Source: Chloroflexota bacterium
Lineage (GTDB): Bacteria > Chloroflexota > Anaerolineae > Anaerolineales > UBA11579
Length of the DNA stretch: 64,000 nt
NCBI GenBank assembly: GCA_019456165.1
Contig: VRUJ01000002.1
Location: 54,794 to 118,793 of the forward strand
Direction: 5' to 3'
Numbering within the stretch: position 1 is the stretch's first letter; every line of letters starts with the position of its first letter. Position numbers and translations under genes: made by a program. The notes below the pieces were generated by a model, which was not told the DNA's origin, did not search any database, and saw nothing but the letters and a program-made list of their open reading frames with translations. Below are positions 16-47,348 of this stretch, piece by piece.

Positions 16-1140
16 GTGAAACCGATGAAACGTATGGAAACATTTGCTCGCATCAAGGTTGTTGGTGTTGGCGGCGGGGGATGCAACGCAGTAAATAGAA
101 TGATCGATGAAGGTATGCATGGCATTGAGTTTGTGGCTGTGAATACGGATGCCCAGGCTTTGATGCTGGCGAATGCCAGCACTCGTGTGCGCATAGGCGA
201 TAAGCTCACACGCGGCTTAGGATCTGGGGGTGATCCGGAAAATGGACGGAAATCCGCGGAAGAATCTGCCGAGGACTTATATAATGTCCTAAGGGGCGCA
301 GACATGGTCTTCATCACTGCTGGAATTGGGGGGGGCACCGGAACTGGGGCTTCACCGATTGTGGCTCAGATCGCACGCGAAGTTGGCGCTTTATCAATTG
401 GAGTGGTCACGCGTCCCTTCACATTTGAGGGCGCTCGCCGCAAAACAGCTGCCGAAGCTGGGATCGCTAAACTCAAAGAGCAGGTGGACACTTTGATAGT
501 GATTCCCAATGACCGTTTATTGCAAATAGTTGATAAACGCGCTACGCTGAATGAAGCATTTTCGATGGCAGATGACGTCCTGCGACAAGGTATCCAAGGT
601 ATTTCCGAATTGATCACCATCCCTGGTCTGATCAACTTGGATTTCGCGGATGTACGCACGATTATGGCCGAAGGTGGAGCTGCGCTGATGGCGGTAGGTA
701 ACGCTGCAGGTGAAGACCGGGCTCGAGATGCGGCTGAACAAGCTATCACTAGCGAACTCTTGGACATCACAATTGATGGCGCTCGGGGTATTTTGTTCAA
801 TGTCACTGGTGGTAATGATCTTTCATTATTCGAAGTCAATCAGGCTGCTGCGATCATCAAGGAAACTGCTCACCCGGATGTCAACCTTATTTTTGGCGCG
901 GTGATCGATCCAAATATGGGCGATGAGATTCGCATTACAGTTATCGCTACCGGTTTTGATAGCTCCGCTACCCCGAAGCGCATGCTGCGCAGCCGTATGA
1001 AGGCTAATAAAGCACAGAAAGGCGTGCGATCTTCAGAAGAGTCGGTATTGGTTGGAGCGGAAACGGTATCTAACGCGTTCAGTGGAAACGTTGAAGATCT
1101 GGATATTCCGACGTTTCTCCGAAAACGCGTCAATAAATAA
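16..1140 (+). CDS. ftsZ: Cell division protein FtsZ
   Basis: [10 protein letters not shown] start, GGGTGTG tubulin signature, NLDFAD, C-terminal LDIPTFLRK; GGAGGA RBS before GTG. Confidence 0.99.
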
Positions 1141-1188
1141 TTTTTTCTCGTGGGAAAAAGCATGCGTAATTAATGTGAAACTTTCCTG

Positions 1189-1274: not shown

Positions 1275-1422
1275 CAGATTTAAAATATAGGATGGAAAAT
1301 TCTTTGTAAAATCGTTTTCCCAAAATATTAAGGTTAAAGTTTTCAAAATCGCTTGCTTTCATTTGGATAATAAGCTACAATTTGTAACTTCTTCATTATA
1401 TACAGGGGAAGTAATTGGATCA

Positions 1423-1438
1423 CCCCCATATTTGGGGG
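1423..1438. promoter_or_regulatory. Putative NrdR box
   Basis: Near-palindrome CCCCCATATTTGGGGG keeps the C-x-A-x-AT-x-T-x-G core of NrdR boxes, just upstream of nrdR-nrdJ; a weaker second site lies about 30 bp upstream. Confidence 0.55.
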
Positions 1439-1471
1439 ATTCATGCGATAAAAGTAATTATTGAGGCTCCC

Positions 1472-1930
1472 ATGATTTGTCCACTTTGTCAGGACAACGA
1501 AATAGAAGGAACAAAGGTAATTGACACAACTCATGATTCCCGTGGGGGGATTCGTCGTCGCCGGAAGTGTAAAAAGTGTAAAAAACGCTTTAGTACCTAC
1601 GAGCGGCCCATACTGGCTACACCTTTGATCATTAAGGAAGATGGCACCCGAGAAAGCTTTGACAGGGAGAAACTGATGCGGGGAATTCGTTTGGCTTGTG
1701 TCAAGCGACCTGTTGCTGCTGCAGATATGGATCGCATGGTGGGCGAAATTGAATCCACTTTGCAGCGCATGGGCAAAGCAGAAGTTTCCTCACGGGTAGT
1801 TGGTGATATGGTGATCGCTGGGCTAAAAGGATTGGACCAGATTGCTTATATACGTTTTGCACTAGTTTACCTGGGTTTAGACGATCTGCATGCCGTCCGT
1901 AACGAATTAGACCGTCTGATAGAAAGTTAG
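1472..1930 (+). CDS. nrdR: Transcriptional repressor NrdR
   Basis: CPLC...RRRRKCKKC zinc ribbon, RFSTYE, ATP cone, AYIRFA; start moved to ATG 1472. Confidence 0.97.
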   Translation: MICPLCQDNEIEGTKVIDTTHDSRGGIRRRRKCKKCKKRFSTYERPILATPLIIKEDGTRESFDREKLMRGIRLACVKRPVAAADMDRMVGEIESTLQRMGKAEVSSRVVGDMVIAGLKGLDQIAYIRFALVYLGLDDLHAVRNELDRLIES

Positions 1931-28762: not shown

Positions 28763-29674
28763 TCATTCTTCTCTTGCAAAAATACCCAAATGGTTGCCGA
28801 TTGGACGTTGTTTTCCTGGTATTCTCTGATGGATCGGTGAATTGAGTACCTGGGGTTCTCCATTTTCACCCTGGATGACCAAGGTAGAAGAACCGCCCCC
28901 ATCCAGGTTGAAACCAGTGTATCCGCGGTGATCCAGCAAGATTTGAGCTAATTCAAGCATCGAAGCGCCTTCGCTGTAGCCGGGTTGGCGGCCGTCAACA
29001 ACAACGATGATCAGGCGTGTTCCTGATTGGTTAATTGCAATCGCAGTACGTGGCTGTACATCATGAGGTAGTCCTTCAATTCTCATAGCTCCGTTCCTAA
29101 TCAATAGGTTGGTGCCAGAAATTGCATTATGGATACGATTTCGTGAGGGCTGCGGATCTATGCTAGCCAAGGTGGCGCGTGAGATGTAAAGTGTGGGCTG
29201 GTTTTGAGTTGCTTCAGAATAAATTTCTCCGTTGGAAGCAGCAAGGCCATATACGTCCACATTGTTTCCAGAAAAGGGATAATAGATAAAACCTAGGTCG
29301 ATCCAGGGGGAGAAAGCATCCCCGTTTACAGCTAGCTGTAAACCGAACTCTTGCAAATACTCGGAAGTCGTGCGAGCTTCGAGTGGACGACTGGATTCTA
29401 GATCTCCGGGGGTTACTAAAACTCCAATTCCTTGGGCGCTTAAATCTACCGTAATAATGTGAATAACCATGGGGCGAGGAGAATTGCGTACCTCCCGCTC
29501 GTAAGTTATGCCTCGGAAAAGAGTTTCAACAGTTTCCTCAGGTTGTTTTGGACTGAGCAGCCTGGCAGGGACACGACAAATGATGCCAACTAGGATAATT
29601 GCCGAGAATAGAATAGCTAGTATAGCCAGACAAGAATTTCTAAACGATCTACGGAATCGATTGCGCATAGCCAC
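28763..29674 (-). CDS. Phosphodiester glycosidase (NAGPA) family protein
   Basis: AVNGD, PRTAIA, VDGRQ, NLDGGGSS; N-terminal TM helix. Confidence 0.88.
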   Translation of the reverse strand: MAMRNRFRRSFRNSCLAILAILFSAIILVGIICRVPARLLSPKQPEETVETLFRGITYEREVRNSPRPMVIHIITVDLSAQGIGVLVTPGDLESSRPLEARTTSEYLQEFGLQLAVNGDAFSPWIDLGFIYYPFSGNNVDVYGLAASNGEIYSEATQNQPTLYISRATLASIDPQPSRNRIHNAISGTNLLIRNGAMRIEGLPHDVQPRTAIAINQSGTRLIIVVVDGRQPGYSEGASMLELAQILLDHRGYTGFNLDGGGSSTLVIQGENGEPQVLNSPIHQRIPGKQRPIGNHLGIFAREE

Positions 29675-29833
29675 TTCCTTGATTGTGTTATTAACTGGCG
29701 TATTTTACCTCCTAAGGATGAAAGCCAGATTAGAATTCTCTATCTTGGATGGTTTTTATTTAAATAACCTAAATTGCCACCTTGCTATGGTTATACAAAA
29801 TTCGAACAGATTGTCCGGTTTTCAAATAATCTC

Positions 29834-29901
29834 TTCAGGGATTCTTCGGTCGAAAACCCCCGGTTTTCTCTCTCAGAATGACACAAATTTTGTCATTCTG
29901 A
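29834..29901. repeat. REP-like unit (29834-29883, minus) and left half of a second unit interrupted by IS110
   Basis: TTCAGGGATTCTTCG...TCAGAATGACA, spacer, then TGTCATTCTGA; the interrupted unit resumes at 31137. Confidence 0.85.
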
Positions 29902-29915
29902 TTACTATGACTTTG

Positions 29916-30944
29916 TCAAGACAATTTATACAATGAGGGATGAATTGAACGGTAATCAGGAATATAGGGTGTTTGCGTTTTCACCACCGCACACATGATC
30001 TTCACCAATTTATTGGCAATATTATTCAAAACCAATTTCTTAGGTTTTCCCTCTGCCACCTTTCGCAGAAAATATTTCTTGAATTGTTGCTGATGGGTAC
30101 GAACAGATAATGAAGCCAGGTAAAGAAGTTTACGGACCTTCGGGGGGCCATAATGACTTGATGAGTCCGGCTTGTATATTGAGCTCCCACTACGGTGTTC
30201 ATAAGGACAAATTCCTATGTATGCAGCCAACTGTTTTGGATTGACTGGATCATTAGGAGTATTTTCCATAATTAGCAATATATTAGCTGCGAGAAGTAAA
30301 CCGACGCCGGGAACACTCATCAACAATCTGATCATATCTCCATATTTTGGGTCTTCATCAATCAATCGTCGAATCTCTGCATCAATTTCTTTTATATTCT
30401 TCTTGATCTGATCTATGCTCCTTTCGTGCAAGGCCTCTGCCAATGGTGTCTCCACTACTTTCCGTTTTAGCGCATTTAATGCATTCAAATGCCCTGTTTT
30501 CTGCACTACATATTGCTCTCTGATCGCCAAAAACACCTTGATTTGCTCCAAGATCTCCTCTCTCGGCTTCCAATACACCAACTCATCATAAAACCGATAT
30601 GCGTATTCAGCAATCTGCTGGCTGTCCACCTGATCATTTTTATGTCCGGCTGGCATAAATGCTCGTTTTACCTTCAAAGGGGATTCAATCGCAATTGGAT
30701 ATTGCTTAGCGCTTAGAAAATATGCCAGCCTTTCCCCATACACACCGGTTGACTCCATACATAAAACCATATTATCTGCGTGGACACCATGATGCTCCAA
30801 CCACTTCAATAATTCAGTAAAGCCTTCAGGATCATTGGAAAACTCCTTTGCTGCTACTACGATTTCCCATGGCTCTTTGCCCACGGCTGCAGTGAAACTT
30901 TTTGAACTTATATCTACCCCAACATAATACTTCGGCCTTTTCAT
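29916..30944 (-). CDS. IS110 transposase/recombinase
   Basis: GVDIS (D), MESTG (E), KNDQVD (DxxD), SVPGVG, CPYEHRSGSS catalytic Ser region. Confidence 0.96.
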   Translation of the reverse strand: MKRPKYYVGVDISSKSFTAAVGKEPWEIVVAAKEFSNDPEGFTELLKWLEHHGVHADNMVLCMESTGVYGERLAYFLSAKQYPIAIESPLKVKRAFMPAGHKNDQVDSQQIAEYAYRFYDELVYWKPREEILEQIKVFLAIREQYVVQKTGHLNALNALKRKVVETPLAEALHERSIDQIKKNIKEIDAEIRRLIDEDPKYGDMIRLLMSVPGVGLLLAANILLIMENTPNDPVNPKQLAAYIGICPYEHRSGSSIYKPDSSSHYGPPKVRKLLYLASLSVRTHQQQFKKYFLRKVAEGKPKKLVLNNIANKLVKIMCAVVKTQTPYIPDYRSIHPSLYKLS

Positions 30945-30965
30945 ATTGCGCTCCTTTTCTTATTT

Positions 30966-31121
30966 TATCGAACACGGTGGATTGAACTTTCTCCATTATT
31001 AGTCTTATTTTACGTTATTACTTATTTAGCTTTATCCACACAAGAGCTGGGTCTTCATCAGAATCTAAGGTATGATCCTTTTAGCGAGCCGTAGACTTGT
31101 TCAGCCCTTGTTCGACTTACA
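30966..31121 (-). ncRNA. Predicted IS110 bridge RNA
   Basis: Closing stem TCGAACA/TGTTCGA; target loop with GGCTCGCT and ATTCTGA; donor loop with AGTAAT and TAATGGA, matching the reconstructed target and circle junction. Confidence 0.8.
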
Positions 31122-31136
31122 TATAATAGTCTAATG

Positions 31137-31173
31137 GAGCGCGCCAGTTTGATCGGCGCAGCGAAGAATCCCT
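31137..31173 (+). repeat. Right half of the IS110-interrupted REP-like unit
   Basis: GAGCGCGCC...GGCGCAGCGAAGAATCCCT completes TGTCATTCTGA at 29891. Confidence 0.85.
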
Positions 31174-31262
31174 AACATGTTCATCTGTAGTGCCTCTTTT
31201 CTGAAAATTACTTAGGTGGAATCTTAGGTTTAATATTTATTTGGAAAACGGGGGATACGATA

Positions 31263-32150
31263 TTAAGTAACTGCGAATTCTTCTTCTAGTCTCTTCATTT
31301 CATTGAAGGAGGCAATCGCCACTTCCAACATTTGCGTATCCGGTTCCCTGGTGGTCAACCTTTGCAGTGCCAAGTTGGGTTTTATGAGCAGCCGCACTAA
31401 AAACCAATTCATGTGGCTTGCCGTCCAACGAATGTATTCATATGCCAGACTGGCAATCACAGGTATCAGCAAAATACGCACCCCCAAGCGTGTCAACAGG
31501 GGGAGAGGACCGAAAAGGGTGAATAAAAGTATTGACATTATTACCACTGTCAGTAAAAAGGCTGTACCGCAGCGTGGGTGCTCCAGGGGAAACTCGGATA
31601 CGTTTTCGGGGGTTAACTCAACTCCAGCTTCAAAAGCATTGATGGTTTTATGCTCTGCGCCGTGATAACCAAATACGCGTCTGATATCTTCCATGAAGCC
31701 AACGCTCCAAATGTAACCAACCAGGAGCGATAAACGGATGAATCCCTCAATTAGGTTTCCAACCCAAGGGGTTAGACTGAAAAAGCTTTCAACGTAATGG
31801 CCAATTGTGGCTGGTCCTAAGAAAAACAATCCTATGGCGAAAATCAAAGATACACCCATCGTGATGTACAATACTGCGCCTTCAAGTTGTTCGTCTTCCT
31901 CGCCTTGCATATTGGCAGAAATCGTTAATGCGCGCATACCCAGTCCGAGTGCATCCCACAACAGCAATAAGCCGCGTAAAAAAGGAATTTTGGCAAGCCG
32001 GGTCTTGTAAATACCCCCCAGCCGTTCTGTATGCAGTACTATGTTTTTATCCGGGGCACGCATGGCGATAGCGACAGCTTTTGCTCCCCGCATCATTACG
32101 CCCTCAATGACGGCTTGGCCGCCGTAGGTAGGTAAAGTTTGGTCTGCCAT
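31263..32150 (-). CDS. DUF1385 membrane protein
   Basis: GGQAVIEGVMM, YHGAEHK, HPRCGT, LQRLTTREP. Confidence 0.92.
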   Translation of the reverse strand: MADQTLPTYGGQAVIEGVMMRGAKAVAIAMRAPDKNIVLHTERLGGIYKTRLAKIPFLRGLLLLWDALGLGMRALTISANMQGEEDEQLEGAVLYITMGVSLIFAIGLFFLGPATIGHYVESFFSLTPWVGNLIEGFIRLSLLVGYIWSVGFMEDIRRVFGYHGAEHKTINAFEAGVELTPENVSEFPLEHPRCGTAFLLTVVIMSILLFTLFGPLPLLTRLGVRILLIPVIASLAYEYIRWTASHMNWFLVRLLIKPNLALQRLTTREPDTQMLEVAIASFNEMKRLEEEFAVT

Positions 32151-43824: not shown

Positions 43825-46821
43825 ATGAGTATCAATCTCAACGTAAACAGCAAATCTCACGAAATCGATGTAGCCCCAGGTGAGAGCCTTTTAAAGGCCT
43901 TACGTGCAGAAGGTTATTACGGGGTAAAACAAGGCTGCGATACTGGTGAATGTGGGGCATGCACAGTCCTAGTCGATAACCGCCCTGTCAATGCATGTGT
44001 GTATTTGACCAGGCAGGCAGAAGGCAAAGAAATTGAAACAATCGAAGCCTCTGGGGAGCATCCAGAGCAAGGTTGGAAACTAACAGAAGGATTGCATCCC
44101 TTGCAACAGGCATTTGTTGCCGGAGGGGCAATCCAGTGCGGTTTCTGCACACCGGGAATGATCCTGGCTGCAAAAGATCTGCTTACGCGTAATCCTAACC
44201 CCAGCGAAGCTGAAGTACGCGAAGGAATATCTGGAGTTTTATGCCGCTGTACCGGTTACGTTAAACCGGTTCAGGCGATATTGCATGCTGCCGCGGTACT
44301 GCGAGGGGAAGCTGAACCTGGAGAGATGATCACACCTGATGATATTGATGCTCTATTCATTTCATTACCTGAAAGCCCAGCCCAGGAAACCAGCGAAGAA
44401 ACCCAAACCAGTGTCCAGGTGCTGCCTAAAGTTTTGATCGCCCCGCAAACCAAAAACTGGAAGCATGTCGGCCAGCCCGAGCAAAAAGTCGACGCGGTTA
44501 AGTTAGTGCAGGGTAAACCCGCTTTCGCCGCTGATTTCGAGATACGCGGTATGCTTATTGCAAAAGTGTTGAAAAGCCCGTTAGCCCATGCACGCATCAA
44601 GCATATCGATGTAAGTGAGGCGCGTGAACTGCCGGGGGTTGCAGCAGTATTGACGCATAAGGATATTCCCCGCGTAGTCTATTCCACGGCAGGGCAGTCG
44701 CATCCCATACCTGGGCCTTTGGATTCGTTCTCATTGGATAACAAGGTCCGTTTTGTGGGGGACCGCGTTGCTCTTGTAGCCGCGGAAAATTCAGAAATTG
44801 CAGATCAGGCGTTGAAATTGATAAAAGTAGAATATGAAGAATTGCCCTCCCTGGTTGATTCGCGCTTAGCGCTGGACAATGAAGCGCTGCTCCACGACCA
44901 GCCGGAATACGTCGATTTTGCCGAATCTGACGCCAGCCGCAATTTAGCCGCACGCTTGCACATAGACATCGGCGATGTAGACCAGGGTTTTGAGGCCGCG
45001 GACCATATCTTTGAGCATGAATACAGCGTTCCCAAGGTACAACAGGCAGCCATCGAGCCTCATGTAGTGATCACTTATTGGGATGAAGATGACCGCCTGG
45101 TGATTCGCACTAGCACACAGGTGCCTTTCCACGTGCGCCGCATATTAGCACCGGTATTGCAGTTACCCTTAAAACGCATCCGGGTGGTCAAACCTCGTAT
45201 TGGTGGTGGTTTTGGAGGTAAGCAAGAAGTCTTGATTGAAGATGTGGCCGCTCACTTGACTATCGCCGCCGGGAGGCCGGTAATCTTTGAATTTACCCGC
45301 CAAGAAGAGTTTGTAGCTGCGCGTCCCCGACACCCCATGCACATCAAGATGAAAACCGGAGTGAAGGAAGACGGTACCATAACAGCTAATGAAATGTATT
45401 GCCTGGCGGATACAGGCGCATACGGCAGCCATGCGCTGACAGTTACCGGTAATACAGGCGCAAAAGCTATGGCAATTTATGTCGGAGATGGGGAATATCG
45501 CCAAAATCCCAATATCCGTTTTGTAGCCGACATCGTCTATACCAACACCACGCCGTCCGGCGCGTTTCGAGGGTATGGCGTGCCTCAAGGATTTTGGGCG
45601 GTGGAACGCCACATGGAACGAATCGCGCGTGAATTAGAACTTGACCCTATCGAGTTCCGCATGAAGAACGCCTTGCGCGAAGGCGAGCTGCAGCCCTTTA
45701 GCACCGCGTGGAGCGAAGGCCGCGAGCCTGTCCCGGAAACTATAGAAACCAACGGGTTGGAAGAGTGTGTGCGCCAGGGACGCGCCGCAATTGGTTGGGA
45801 TCAGAAATTCGGAATTGAAGGATGGCACCAGGTTTCAGGTAAGCCTACGCTCCGCAAAGGGATTGGGATATCCTTGGCCATGCACGGCACTGCGATTCCC
45901 TATCTGGACATGGGTGCTGCCAGCATCAAGATGAACGATGACGGCTCGTTTAATTTAATGGTCGGAGCGACAGACCTGGGCACCGGCTCGGATACAGTGC
46001 TTGCCCAAATGGCTGCTGAGGTCTTGGGTGTCCCCTTGGAAGATTTGATCGTGTATTCTTCGGATACCGATTTCACCCCGTTTGATAAAGGCGCTTACGC
46101 CTCCAGCACAACCTACATCTCCGGCGCAGCGGTGGTTGGGGCGGCGCAAAAAGTTGCGGATCGACTTACATACCGCGCGGCTTTGATACTTAACGAACGC
46201 GGGGATGGCCCCGAAGTTAACCCAAGTGAGATACGTTTGGCCGACCGCCGGGCAACAACCCAGGACGGCCGTTTCGTGACCCTGGAGGAGATTGGACAGC
46301 ATGCGCTGCACCAAGGGGAACAGGAACAGATTATGGCGGTTGATTCCTACGTTTCTCCGGTTGCCCCCCCGCCTTTTGCCGCCCAGTTTGCAGAAGTGAC
46401 TGTAGATATAGAAACTGGGCAAGTTGTGGTGGATAAGCTGGTCATGGCGGTTGATGCTGGAATTATCATTAACCCGGTCACTGCCGGAGGTCAAATCGAG
46501 GGGGGCATGACGCAAGCTTTAGGCTACGCTGTTTGCGAAGAAATGATCTACGATGATAAGGGTGTCTTGCGGGAGCAAAACTTGAGGGACTATCACATTT
46601 TTCAAGCTAATGAGATGCCGCAAATGGAAACCATATTTGTCGAAACTTTTGAACCTTCGCATCCTTTTGGCGTAAAGGCGGTGGCTGAGATACCCACGGA
46701 TGCTGTTGCCCCGGCGGTAGCAAACGCGATCATGGATGCTTGCGGCGCAGATCTCAATGTAATACCCGCAACACCTGAACGAATTTGGAAATCGCTCAAA
46801 GAATCAGCGGAGCTAAAATAA
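43825..46821 (+). CDS. xdhD: Xanthine dehydrogenase family fused 2Fe-2S and molybdopterin subunit (XdhD-like)
   Basis: GCDTGECGAC, QCGFCTPG, CRCTGY, GGGFGGK, AFRGYG, DKGAYASS, KAVAE; follows ygfM-like gene, same cluster as ssnA. Confidence 0.75.
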   Translation: MSINLNVNSKSHEIDVAPGESLLKALRAEGYYGVKQGCDTGECGACTVLVDNRPVNACVYLTRQAEGKEIETIEASGEHPEQGWKLTEGLHPLQQAFVAGGAIQCGFCTPGMILAAKDLLTRNPNPSEAEVREGISGVLCRCTGYVKPVQAILHAAAVLRGEAEPGEMITPDDIDALFISLPESPAQETSEETQTSVQVLPKVLIAPQTKNWKHVGQPEQKVDAVKLVQGKPAFAADFEIRGMLIAKVLKSPLAHARIKHIDVSEARELPGVAAVLTHKDIPRVVYSTAGQSHPIPGPLDSFSLDNKVRFVGDRVALVAAENSEIADQALKLIKVEYEELPSLVDSRLALDNEALLHDQPEYVDFAESDASRNLAARLHIDIGDVDQGFEAADHIFEHEYSVPKVQQAAIEPHVVITYWDEDDRLVIRTSTQVPFHVRRILAPVLQLPLKRIRVVKPRIGGGFGGKQEVLIEDVAAHLTIAAGRPVIFEFTRQEEFVAARPRHPMHIKMKTGVKEDGTITANEMYCLADTGAYGSHALTVTGNTGAKAMAIYVGDGEYRQNPNIRFVADIVYTNTTPSGAFRGYGVPQGFWAVERHMERIARELELDPIEFRMKNALREGELQPFSTAWSEGREPVPETIETNGLEECVRQGRAAIGWDQKFGIEGWHQVSGKPTLRKGIGISLAMHGTAIPYLDMGAASIKMNDDGSFNLMVGATDLGTGSDTVLAQMAAEVLGVPLEDLIVYSSDTDFTPFDKGAYASSTTYISGAAVVGAAQKVADRLTYRAALILNERGDGPEVNPSEIRLADRRATTQDGRFVTLEEIGQHALHQGEQEQIMAVDSYVSPVAPPPFAAQFAEVTVDIETGQVVVDKLVMAVDAGIIINPVTAGGQIEGGMTQALGYAVCEEMIYDDKGVLREQNLRDYHIFQANEMPQMETIFVETFEPSHPFGVKAVAEIPTDAVAPAVANAIMDACGADLNVIPATPERIWKSLKESAELK

Positions 46822-46868
46822 GGAATACTACAGCATAATAGCATTAATATCGATATTAAAAAAAATTT

Positions 46869-47348
46869 ATGCTAGCGAGGAGAAAAATACAGTTGAATAA
46901 TCTTGTTTTAGGCATTATTGGAGCGCTTGTCACGGGGATGCTTATCGGTACCCAATCCTCTATCGGCAGCAGAGTTGGCGAGGTAATTGGACCCATCCCC
47001 ACGGGAATAGTGATGAATATGTTTGGGGGCATGCTGGCAGGCTTACTTTTTATTCTACTGAGACTCAACCAAGGATCGCATGCCTGGCGCATTCCAGGCA
47101 AAGAAATTTGGTTGCTAATAATTGCTGGGGCTTTAGGGATAATGATCATCACGGGAGTGTCATTTTCTTTGCAGCGCACTGGCGTAACCGCGGGCATAGC
47201 TGCGCTTATCCTGGGACAATTGCTAGTTTCAACAATGGTTGATACAACCGGGTGGGGGGGAGCCGAACCGATCCCGTTGAGCGGCCAGCGTATTTTGGGG
47301 TTGCTCGTTATGGGAATAGCGGTTTACTTGCTGCTTCCAAGGCAGTGA
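46869..47348 (+). CDS. DMT family transporter (YdcZ-like)
   Basis: About five TM helices, GQLLVSTMVDTTGW. Confidence 0.8.
   Translation: MLARRKIQLNNLVLGIIGALVTGMLIGTQSSIGSRVGEVIGPIPTGIVMNMFGGMLAGLLFILLRLNQGSHAWRIPGKEIWLLIIAGALGIMIITGVSFSLQRTGVTAGIAALILGQLLVSTMVDTTGWGGAEPIPLSGQRILGLLVMGIAVYLLLPRQ

Follow-up and report, generated by a model that had tools for sequence, protein, structure and literature searches.

Results

An IS110-group insertion sequence with fixed ends

We analysed a 64,000-nucleotide stretch from the genome of a Chloroflexota bacterium (GCA_019456165.1, contig VRUJ01000002.1, positions 54,794 to 118,793; hereafter the window). An insertion sequence (IS) of the IS110 group lies at 29902-31136 on its minus strand. 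The IS measures 1235 bp excluding the shared core, plus one TC dinucleotide, and between its junctions it consists of a 192-nt non-coding left end (30945-31136), an open reading frame (ORF) of 342 amino acids (aa) and a 14-nt right end (29902-29915). We propose that the left end encodes a bridge RNA matching both the insertion site of the element and its own joined ends, and we put the probability of this reading at about 0.88. The gene and the two junctions are placed as follows.

29916-30944, minus strand: recombinase gene, 342 aa, with a DEDD RuvC-like and a Tnp domain (ORF, Pfam and PDB matches)
31137-31138, minus strand: core dinucleotide TC of the left junction (sequence and junction comparison)
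29900-29901, minus strand: core dinucleotide TC of the right junction (sequence and junction comparison)

A search of the window's own assembly (G000; 63 contigs, 3.8 Mb, 93.9% complete) gave 19 matching pieces, among them an empty site in the same genome. There, C12:28410-28328 corresponds to the left flank (97.6%) and C12:28329-28278 to the right flank (92.3%). Exactly 2 bases, TC, are common to both pieces, and this overlap fixes the limits of the element at 29902-31136 with a shared TC. Contigs from two other public runs (X2 and X3) join position 29899 to 31137, with 1237 bases skipped and 2 ambiguous letters, and thus represent empty sites elsewhere. As the empty-site overlap demonstrates, insertion was site-specific and without target duplication, TC being common to donor and target. 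The left junction reads GGCGCGC-TC-CATTAG (in the fuller read ACTGGCGCGC-TC-CATTAGACT; minus strand, window 31160-29870) and the right junction ATAGTAA-TC-AGAATGACA (fuller read GTCATAGTAA-TC-AGAATGACA, minus strand). Long terminal inverted repeats are lacking; the guide-paired donor bases are flanked by a GTC/GAC repeat of just 3 bp.

The assembly holds 8 left and 8 right junctions, window copy included. The other left junctions (C7, C46, C34, C14, C52, C38, C55) and right junctions (C54, C40, C2, C63, C62, C47, C39) lie at or near contig ends, because a multi-copy repeat breaks short-read assembly, and the window copy is the only complete one. Left flanks of at least five unrelated kinds occur among the copies. 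Two sequence variants could be distinguished: A (window, C52 and C63) and B (the remaining copies, 85-92% identical). In run X1, unitigs common to both variants reach a depth of 662-726 compared to 77-80 for the flanking contigs, which hints at roughly eight or nine copies, though such depths are not copy numbers.

The encoded protein carries PF01548 (E = 3.8e-23, residues 8-158) and PF02371 (E = 1.8e-17, residues 206-292), and its PDB matches (phmmer) were solely the recombinases of ISCro4 (E = 2.3e-29) and IS621 (E = 1.3e-27). Residues D11, E64, D104, D107 and S252 align with positions 13, 62, 104, 107 and 243 of the IS621 chain. Assuming two extra N-terminal residues in the PDB chain, we infer that these are D11, E60, D102, D105 and S241, which Hiraizumi 2024 (PMC11208158) names as catalytic. 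Across 37 relatives, the five residues of the window protein show little or no variation. Given the open ORF and the conserved catalytic residues, the element appears to be intact.

A protein search returned 2197 proteins at E <= 0.001; the best 120 are 57-91% identical and lie mostly on contigs of 1.2-1.5 kb. Scanning genome contigs with the single protein yielded no relative, whereas an alignment-based scan with one genome per species found 316. The best 80 of these (L020-L099) show 42-60% identity, and their records are mostly metagenome-assembled genomes (MAGs) labelled Chloroflexota or Anaerolineae, with further labels of Ignavibacteria, Neomarinimicrobiota, Atribacteria and Elusimicrobia. 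The single-protein scan of metagenome contigs gave one locus, L100.

A first-pass annotation of this DNA had called an IS110 element at 29891-31173, with an empty target and a TC core. Both Pfam domains and the aligned IS621 catalytic residues support the recombinase, and the 2-base overlap at the C12 site supports the target and core, as do the TC guides of most relatives (below). The extent had to be corrected, since it took in flank on both sides of the element proper.

Guide segments for the target and for the joined ends

Within the left end, we identified segments corresponding to the guides and handshake positions of a bridge RNA, in the order left target guide (LTG), right target guide (RTG), left donor guide (LDG) and right donor guide (RDG).

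31082-31091, minus strand: LTG, CGGCUCGCUA, in the sense of the left target TGGCGCGC-TC top strand
31058-31064, minus strand: RTG, AUUCUGA, exact reverse complement of TC+AGAAT (7/7)
31056-31057, minus strand: target-loop handshake UG, its U complementary to donor position 7 (A)
31017-31022, minus strand: LDG, AGUAAU, same sense as the right-end tip, AGTAA, with the first core base added (6/6)
30992-30998, minus strand: RDG, UAAUGGA, exact reverse complement of TC+CATTA (7/7)
30990-30991, minus strand: donor-loop handshake GA, its G complementary to target position 7 (C)

The LTG matches its own left target at 7/8 positions, namely 6/7 non-core bases and the first core base. The LTG side has the sense of the left target and would therefore pair with the bottom strand. 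None of 200,000 mononucleotide shuffles of the 192-nt left end contained the four guide motifs in order, while the single motifs occurred in 2062, 2597, 25915 and 5350 of the shuffles. An invariant AAGUCUA before the LTG was also considered as a guide for the donor sequence TAGACTT. This candidate was rejected because its GUCU pairs with an invariant AGAC after the RTG.

A conserved RNA structure upstream of the recombinase gene

The upstream regions of the relatives could be aligned to the left end of the window element. RNAalifold, applied to 30 of these regions, predicted a 9-bp helix, P1, 8 of whose pairs show compensatory changes, as well as P2, an invariant helix of GUCU with AGAC. Only these two were recovered from the MAFFT alignment, because MAFFT had shifted the other helices between subgroups. 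A covariance model, R1 (158 positions, 37 pairs), was built from the same number of relatives with the RNAalifold helices and helices added by hand.

R1 gave a single match in the 64-kb window (128.3 bits, E = 3.7e-25). At E <= 0.001 it found 84 matches in 88 sources, at nearly every locus in full length and directly upstream of the gene. In the R1-fitted alignment, 90.8% of cells are paired, compared to 70.9% in column shuffles, and 32 of the 37 pairs have changed on both sides; not one of 500 shuffles attained any of five measures. Sliding the partners by 1-3 columns reduced pairing to 30-49%.

The architecture comprises a basal stem, P0, which closes two arms. In the first arm, P1 leads through a small bulge to P2, beyond which lie an internal loop and a short distal hairpin; the second arm is made up of P4, P5, an internal loop and a distal hairpin of 3 bp. 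Their elements lie in the window as follows.

30964-31121, minus strand: bridge RNA body from basal stem to basal stem, ~158 nt (covariance model R1)
31111-31115, minus strand: P0 basal stem, 5' arm UCGAA, pairing with 30968-30972; the family helix has 8 pairs, all changed on both sides
30968-30972, minus strand: P0 basal stem, 3' arm UUCGA (sequence and covariation)
31102-31110, minus strand: P1, stem of the target-binding loop, 5' arm CAAGGGCUG; 9 pairs, 8 compensatory
31041-31049, minus strand: P1, 3' arm CAGCUCUUG (RNAalifold and covariation)
31093-31096, minus strand: P2 helix, 5' arm GUCU, nearly invariant, pairing with AGAC at 31051-31054
31051-31054, minus strand: P2 helix, 3' arm AGAC (RNAalifold and covariation)
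31067-31080, minus strand: target-loop distal hairpin, AAGG, loop AUCAUA, CCUU (read from the sequence)
31034-31039, minus strand: P4, stem of the donor-binding loop, 5' arm GUGGAU; 6 pairs, all changed on both sides
30977-30982, minus strand: P4, 3' arm AUCCAC (sequence and covariation)
31028-31031, minus strand: P5, inner donor-loop helix, 5' arm AGCU, pairing with AGUU at 30985-30988; 97.5% of cells paired
30985-30988, minus strand: P5, 3' arm AGUU (covariation)

The target-loop distal helix is weakly supported in the family, with 64.7% of cells paired and a register that differs between relatives. No 5' stem-loop was found in the window copy, where ~12 nt separate the TAGACT of a putative -10 element from the basal stem. 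According to Durrant 2024 (PMC11208160), the IS621-like consensus has a 5' stem-loop and structures across the IS110 family are diverse; as that account describes it, the 5' stem-loop is a feature of the IS621 clade and not of the whole family. In L046, L047 and L033, a hairpin lies between the left end and the basal stem and could represent a 5' stem-loop. The 192-nt left end of the window copy is the shortest among those measured. An Rfam scan of 29500-31500 at E <= 10 returned four matches to unrelated families (E 0.8-4.5), far below gathering scores and none of them within the bridge RNA.

Two unusual arrangements were seen among the relatives. The donor loop of L033 (134-311) contains a tandem duplication of ~24 nt that repeats the right donor guide region. 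At L052, two full-length R1 matches (992-1145, minus strand, and 1325-1478, plus strand) are arranged head to head with about 180 bases between them; presumably, the second is part of another copy inserted beside the first.

Guides and DNA change together among relatives

Guides were read from fixed columns of the R1-fitted alignment and flanks from conserved end motifs. The comparison covered 77 rows, which remained of the 84 matches once six partial rows belonging to the genome of the window and L052's second match, on the minus strand, had been set aside. Parsing succeeded for the right flank in 67 rows, of which 58 are non-redundant, and for the left flank in 62 rows, of which 53 are non-redundant.

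Compared with the right flank of its own element, the RTG agrees at all five non-core bases (5/5) in 39 of 58 elements, at 4/5 in 17, at 3/5 in one and at 1/5 in one. The mean match is 4.60, compared to 2.66 for the flanks of other elements, and no permutation out of 20,000 reached the observed sum. The sample contains 24 distinct RTG 5-mers and 25 distinct flank 5-mers. LTG and left target agree at 4.53 of 7 positions on average, versus 3.28 (best of four registers; 0/20,000 permutations). The LDG equals the left donor at 7/7 in 30 of 42 distinct pairs, and most relatives' guides spell TC at the core.

The handshake positions follow the DNA as well. The base after the RTG is U in all 15 elements with donor A7 and A in 31 of 44 with donor T7; the other 13 elements with donor T7 have U, and belong mostly to the Ignavibacteria group. 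As the base following the RDG, 41 of 43 elements with target C7 have G, 3/3 with G7 have C and 3/7 with T7 have A. The handshake rule itself was described in Hiraizumi 2024 (PMC11208158). Natural variation of the RTG 5-mers and of both handshake positions with the DNA thus provides independent support for the published bridge-RNA model. This natural guide variation also suggests that the system would be reprogrammable.

Five copies on one complete Elusimicrobia MAG chromosome (L053-L057) have CC before TATTAGAC at the left junction and CC at the core positions of LTG, RTG and RDG, and they have TC at the right junction, so that the core of this lineage may be different or mixed.

The first-pass annotation had read GGCTCGCT (31083-31090) as the left guide segment and had placed the other three guides exactly where we find them, in the same order and inside two loops. 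Its stems, GGGCTG (31102-31107) with CAGCTC (31044-31049) and GTGGAT with ATCCAC, and the closing stem TCGAACA (31109-31115) with TGTTCGA (30968-30974), were recovered and covary across relatives. It had also seen no separate 5' hairpin, in agreement with the short distance from the promoter-like -10 to the basal stem. Both of the family-level predictions held: a covariance model from homologous left ends detects this RNA upstream of the gene at almost every one of the 80 loci, and RTG and LTG each change with the targets across homologs.

Target repeats and a GAC beside the right target

The IS has split a ~220-bp repeat bounded by inverted ends (AGTTGCCACC...GGTGGCAACT), resembling a miniature inverted-repeat transposable element. 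The assembly contains five copies of this repeat, one empty (C12) and four occupied by the IS, located in the window and at C12:28200-28460, C46, C7, C34, C47, C40 and C62. At the window site, its parts are as follows.

31137-31230, minus strand: left half of the ~220-bp repeat (C25:85930-86023), 95.7% identical to the empty C12 copy
29774-29901, minus strand: right half of the ~220-bp repeat (C25:84567-84694), 93.0% identical to the empty C12 copy
29873-29901, minus strand: target hairpin in the right flank, TCAGAATGACA, 7-nt loop, TGTCATTCTGA, including GAC at +6 to +8

The genome has 39 TCAGAATGAC sites, most of them in a repetitive extragenic palindrome (REP)-like unit composed of (A)GATTCTTC, a GC-rich hairpin, TC and AGAATGACA. 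A second hairpin, TCAGAATGACA...TGTCATTCTGA, often follows this unit. The term REP-like hairpin, used for the target in the first-pass annotation, is therefore a fitting one. On C27 (minus-strand offsets 46646-47157), five tandem REP-like units lie about 128 bases apart, each with AGATTCTTC, GGCGC-loop-GCGCC, TC and AGAATGACAC...; all five are unoccupied potential landing sites.

All eight occupied right junctions read TC-AGAA(T/A)-GAC. The left targets are GGCGCGC (three times), GGCTCGA, TAGTCGC, GATAAGC, ATCTCCA and ATCTCTT, and the scores against the LTG of the inserted copy are 6, 6, 6, 6, 4, 3, 3 and 3 of 7. The expectation that other copies would sit in like sites is thus borne out on the right and only in part on the left, where half of the targets reach 3-4 of 7. 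C38 and C55 (variant B) sit in a different repeat subfamily, with the left targets ATCTCCA and ATCTCTT, and carry the altered LTGs GCCUCUCU and GCCUCGCU in place of GGCUCGCU. These changes give no better match to the left flank than the common LTG, with 3/7 both ways in the standard register. L100, from another metagenome and with 81% aa identity, is inserted into the same target repeat, on the opposite strand of its palindrome; its right target is perfect and its left target matches at 4/7. A recent preprint reports that IS621 can recombine when only the core and one arm match, which offers a published frame for such one-sided natural sites.

The GAC at +6 to +8 after the core (window 29892-29894) lies outside the 7-nt RTG and is found in 54 of 60 distinct right flanks, across phyla. 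The same GAC occupies +6 to +8 of the element's own left end (CATTA-GAC) and is mirrored by a GTC before the right-end bases that pair with the LDG. In the genome, GAC follows 39 of 609 TCAGAAT sites, compared to 7/7 occupied TCAGAAT sites. Inspection of the aligned relatives revealed no RNA segment beside the RTG or RDG that is complementary to the conserved GAC. Durrant 2024 (PMC11208160) describes a short subterminal donor repeat in IS621 relatives, and reports no comparable signal in targets. Since GAC is confounded with the repeat context, we treat it as an unexplained regularity; its most likely reading is a contact made by the recombinase.

Promoter halves and a proposed mechanism

Two promoter-like hexamers lie at opposite ends of the element.

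29914-29919, minus strand: TTGACA, putative -35 half, overlapping the stop codon (sequence; function proposed by analogy with IS621)
31128-31133, minus strand: TAGACT, putative -10 half, with a 17-bp spacer to TTGACA once the ends are joined

The relatives' right ends likewise contain a conserved TTGAC. In L032 and L038, which have a shorter right end, the 17-bp spacing is kept to a TATAAT located further in. For IS621, joining of the ends has been described to unite a right-end -35 with a left-end -10 (Durrant 2024, PMC11208160).

By analogy with IS621, we propose that the element would be excised as a circle, and that end joining would create the TTGACA-17 bp-TAGACT promoter driving the RNA. 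The first stem-loop would act as the target-binding loop, its 5' side CGGCUCGCUA pairing with the left target's bottom strand. The second would act as the donor-binding loop, in which AGUAAU and UAAUGGA serve the element's own joined ends, ATAGTAA-TC-CATTAG. The RNA-bound recombinase would then carry out recombination between the circle junction and a TC-AGAAT-GAC site within a palindromic, REP-like repeat, with strand exchange predicted to take place at the TC core.

Discussion

Several observations weigh against our interpretation. The LTG is imperfect at its own site (6/7 non-core bases) and mismatched at the second core base. Four of the eight left junctions in the genome match the LTG at only 3-4 of 7 positions (for C38 and C55, their own LTGs), and the match is loose in the family as well, with 25 of 53 elements at no more than 4 of 7. 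The donor-loop distal hairpin retains 2/3 of the family pairs in the window copy. Folded as a single sequence, the RNA is not better than shuffles (z = -1.18; 29/200 fold as well), so that the structure rests on covariation among relatives, and the alignment behind it (A4) was fitted to R1 and thus leans towards pairing and towards the structure of the model. The ends of the relatives were placed by conserved end motifs and not by empty sites. When the linear sequence was scanned for promoters, the left end gave none on the minus strand, as would be expected if the promoter needs the joined ends. Further, no RNA run with the element was listed, and the contigs compared contain no end-to-end joint, although contigs cannot reveal starts, ends or rare forms.

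Could the protein be what mainly picks the target, through GAC or a hairpin, with the RNA playing a minor part and the guide matches reflecting a long tie to one repeat family? The position of GAC outside the 7-nt RTG in 54 of 60 distinct right flanks across phyla, its presence at 8/8 occupied right junctions as opposed to 39 of 609 TCAGAAT sites, and the loose left-target matches in this genome and in the family would all fit such a view. It would also have a counterpart in ISPpu10, where a target stem-loop is described as a second layer of specificity (10.64898/2026.03.19.712850). However, the five bases between the core and GAC vary (25 distinct 5-mers) and the RTG changes alongside them (0/20,000 permutations), and the LTG and the handshake positions covary too, which a choice made by the protein alone does not predict. 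GAC may add a requirement rather than replace the guide. We therefore consider a mainly protein-chosen target improbable.

Even less probable, in our view, is that the window copy is a recently inactivated relic, in which the family structure is real and transposition is no longer supported. The LTG of this copy ends in UA where most relatives have UC, and IS621 strongly preferred a match to both core strands in the experiments reported in Durrant 2024 (PMC11208160); the partly lost donor-loop distal helix (2/3 pairs left) and the lack of a circle junction in the contigs compared point in the same direction. On the other hand, the ORF is open with conserved catalytic residues, and variant A occupies a second site, at C52 and C63 (77-nt overlaps, 100% identity). 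The UA ending is shared by variant B, L100, L046 and L047, all with several or distinct insertion sites. Unitig depth in X1 (662-726 versus 77-80 in the flanks) hints at many copies, depth not being a copy number. We retain the interpretation that this is an IS110-group element with a bridge RNA matching its insertion site and its own joined ends.

A more far-reaching idea concerns how this clade selects its targets. Tentatively, and with more doubt than confidence, we suggest that the choice may be dominated by the right half-site and may need a fixed, guide-independent GAC beyond the five RTG-paired bases. Such a signal would resemble a protospacer adjacent motif (PAM) and would be read in both DNAs by the recombinase or through a non-canonical RNA contact, while the left guide would accept 3-4 mismatches and a second core base left unpaired. 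Were this the case, such compact systems (342-aa protein, ~158-nt RNA without a 5' hairpin) would be programmed somewhat differently from IS621.

Among the closest known systems is IS621 of E. coli. Both recombinases combine a DEDD RuvC-like domain with a Tnp domain carrying a catalytic serine (PMC11208160, PMC11208158), and both elements follow the plan given for the IS110 group in Durrant 2024 (PMC11208160), with a long left and a short right non-coding end. As described for IS621, the long left end encodes the RNA, in which the target loop precedes the donor loop. In both loops, the 5' side reads like the top strand and pairs with the bottom one, and the 3' side is the complement of the top strand (PMC11208160). 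The two elements also share a core dinucleotide that occurs in donor and target alike, handshake positions located 3' of each right-hand guide, and repeated extragenic palindromes as targets. In both, the right end carries a -35 and the left end a -10 (putative in the window element), which end joining brings together in IS621 and would bring together here. The guide-paired donor region is bounded in both by a 3-bp inverted repeat, GTC...GAC here and ATA...TAT in IS621.

The two systems differ in several respects. The proteins are only distantly related (phmmer E = 1.3e-27), the core is TC instead of the CT reported for IS621, and the natural RTG pairs with five non-core bases, compared to two to four given for IS621. 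The RNA of the window has no 5' stem-loop and has a covarying basal stem that closes both loops, and its LTG pairs with the first core base only. Finally, the target also contains GAC, the right half of the flanking repeat, whereas the IS621-like targets presented in Durrant 2024 (Extended Data Fig. 10a) are without such a signal.

ISCro4 (IS622) of Citrobacter rodentium (PDB 9t56), the best PDB match (E = 2.3e-29), uses the same scheme of loops, guides and handshakes according to Perry et al. (10.1101/2025.05.14.653916). In contrast to the window element, its core is described as CT and its RNA as IS621-like, including a 5' stem-loop, and its activity has been demonstrated experimentally, while the element studied here is known from sequence alone. 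ISPpu10 of Pseudomonas putida is likewise an IS110 element that inserts into one conserved intergenic repeat, with a target feature outside the guide-paired bases adding specificity (10.64898/2026.03.19.712850). There, the feature is an experimentally tested GC-rich stem-loop 5' of the target, whereas here it is GAC 3' of the right target (plus hairpins), as an observation. The IS1111 group shares the recombinase family and the idea of an RNA guide (seekRNA or bridge RNA). It is characterized by a long, RNA-bearing right end and subterminal inverted repeats of 7-17 bp (Durrant 2024, PMC11208160), whereas our element has a 14-nt right end, an RNA in its left end and a 3-bp repeat. Members of the clade may already be included in the ortholog tables of Durrant 2024 and Perry 2025.

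Taken as a bridge-RNA IS110 element outside the IS621 clade, the window element is clearly an ordinary further case of the mechanism described in 2024. It provides a clean natural case of bridge-RNA logic outside that clade, with proven ends. Three of its properties may be of use in the engineering of bridge recombinases: the RNA is compact and lacks a 5' hairpin, the core is TC, and a fixed GAC may be required beside the target. For the annotation of this genome, the element accounts for several contig breaks and marks the REP-like repeat family as its landing pad.

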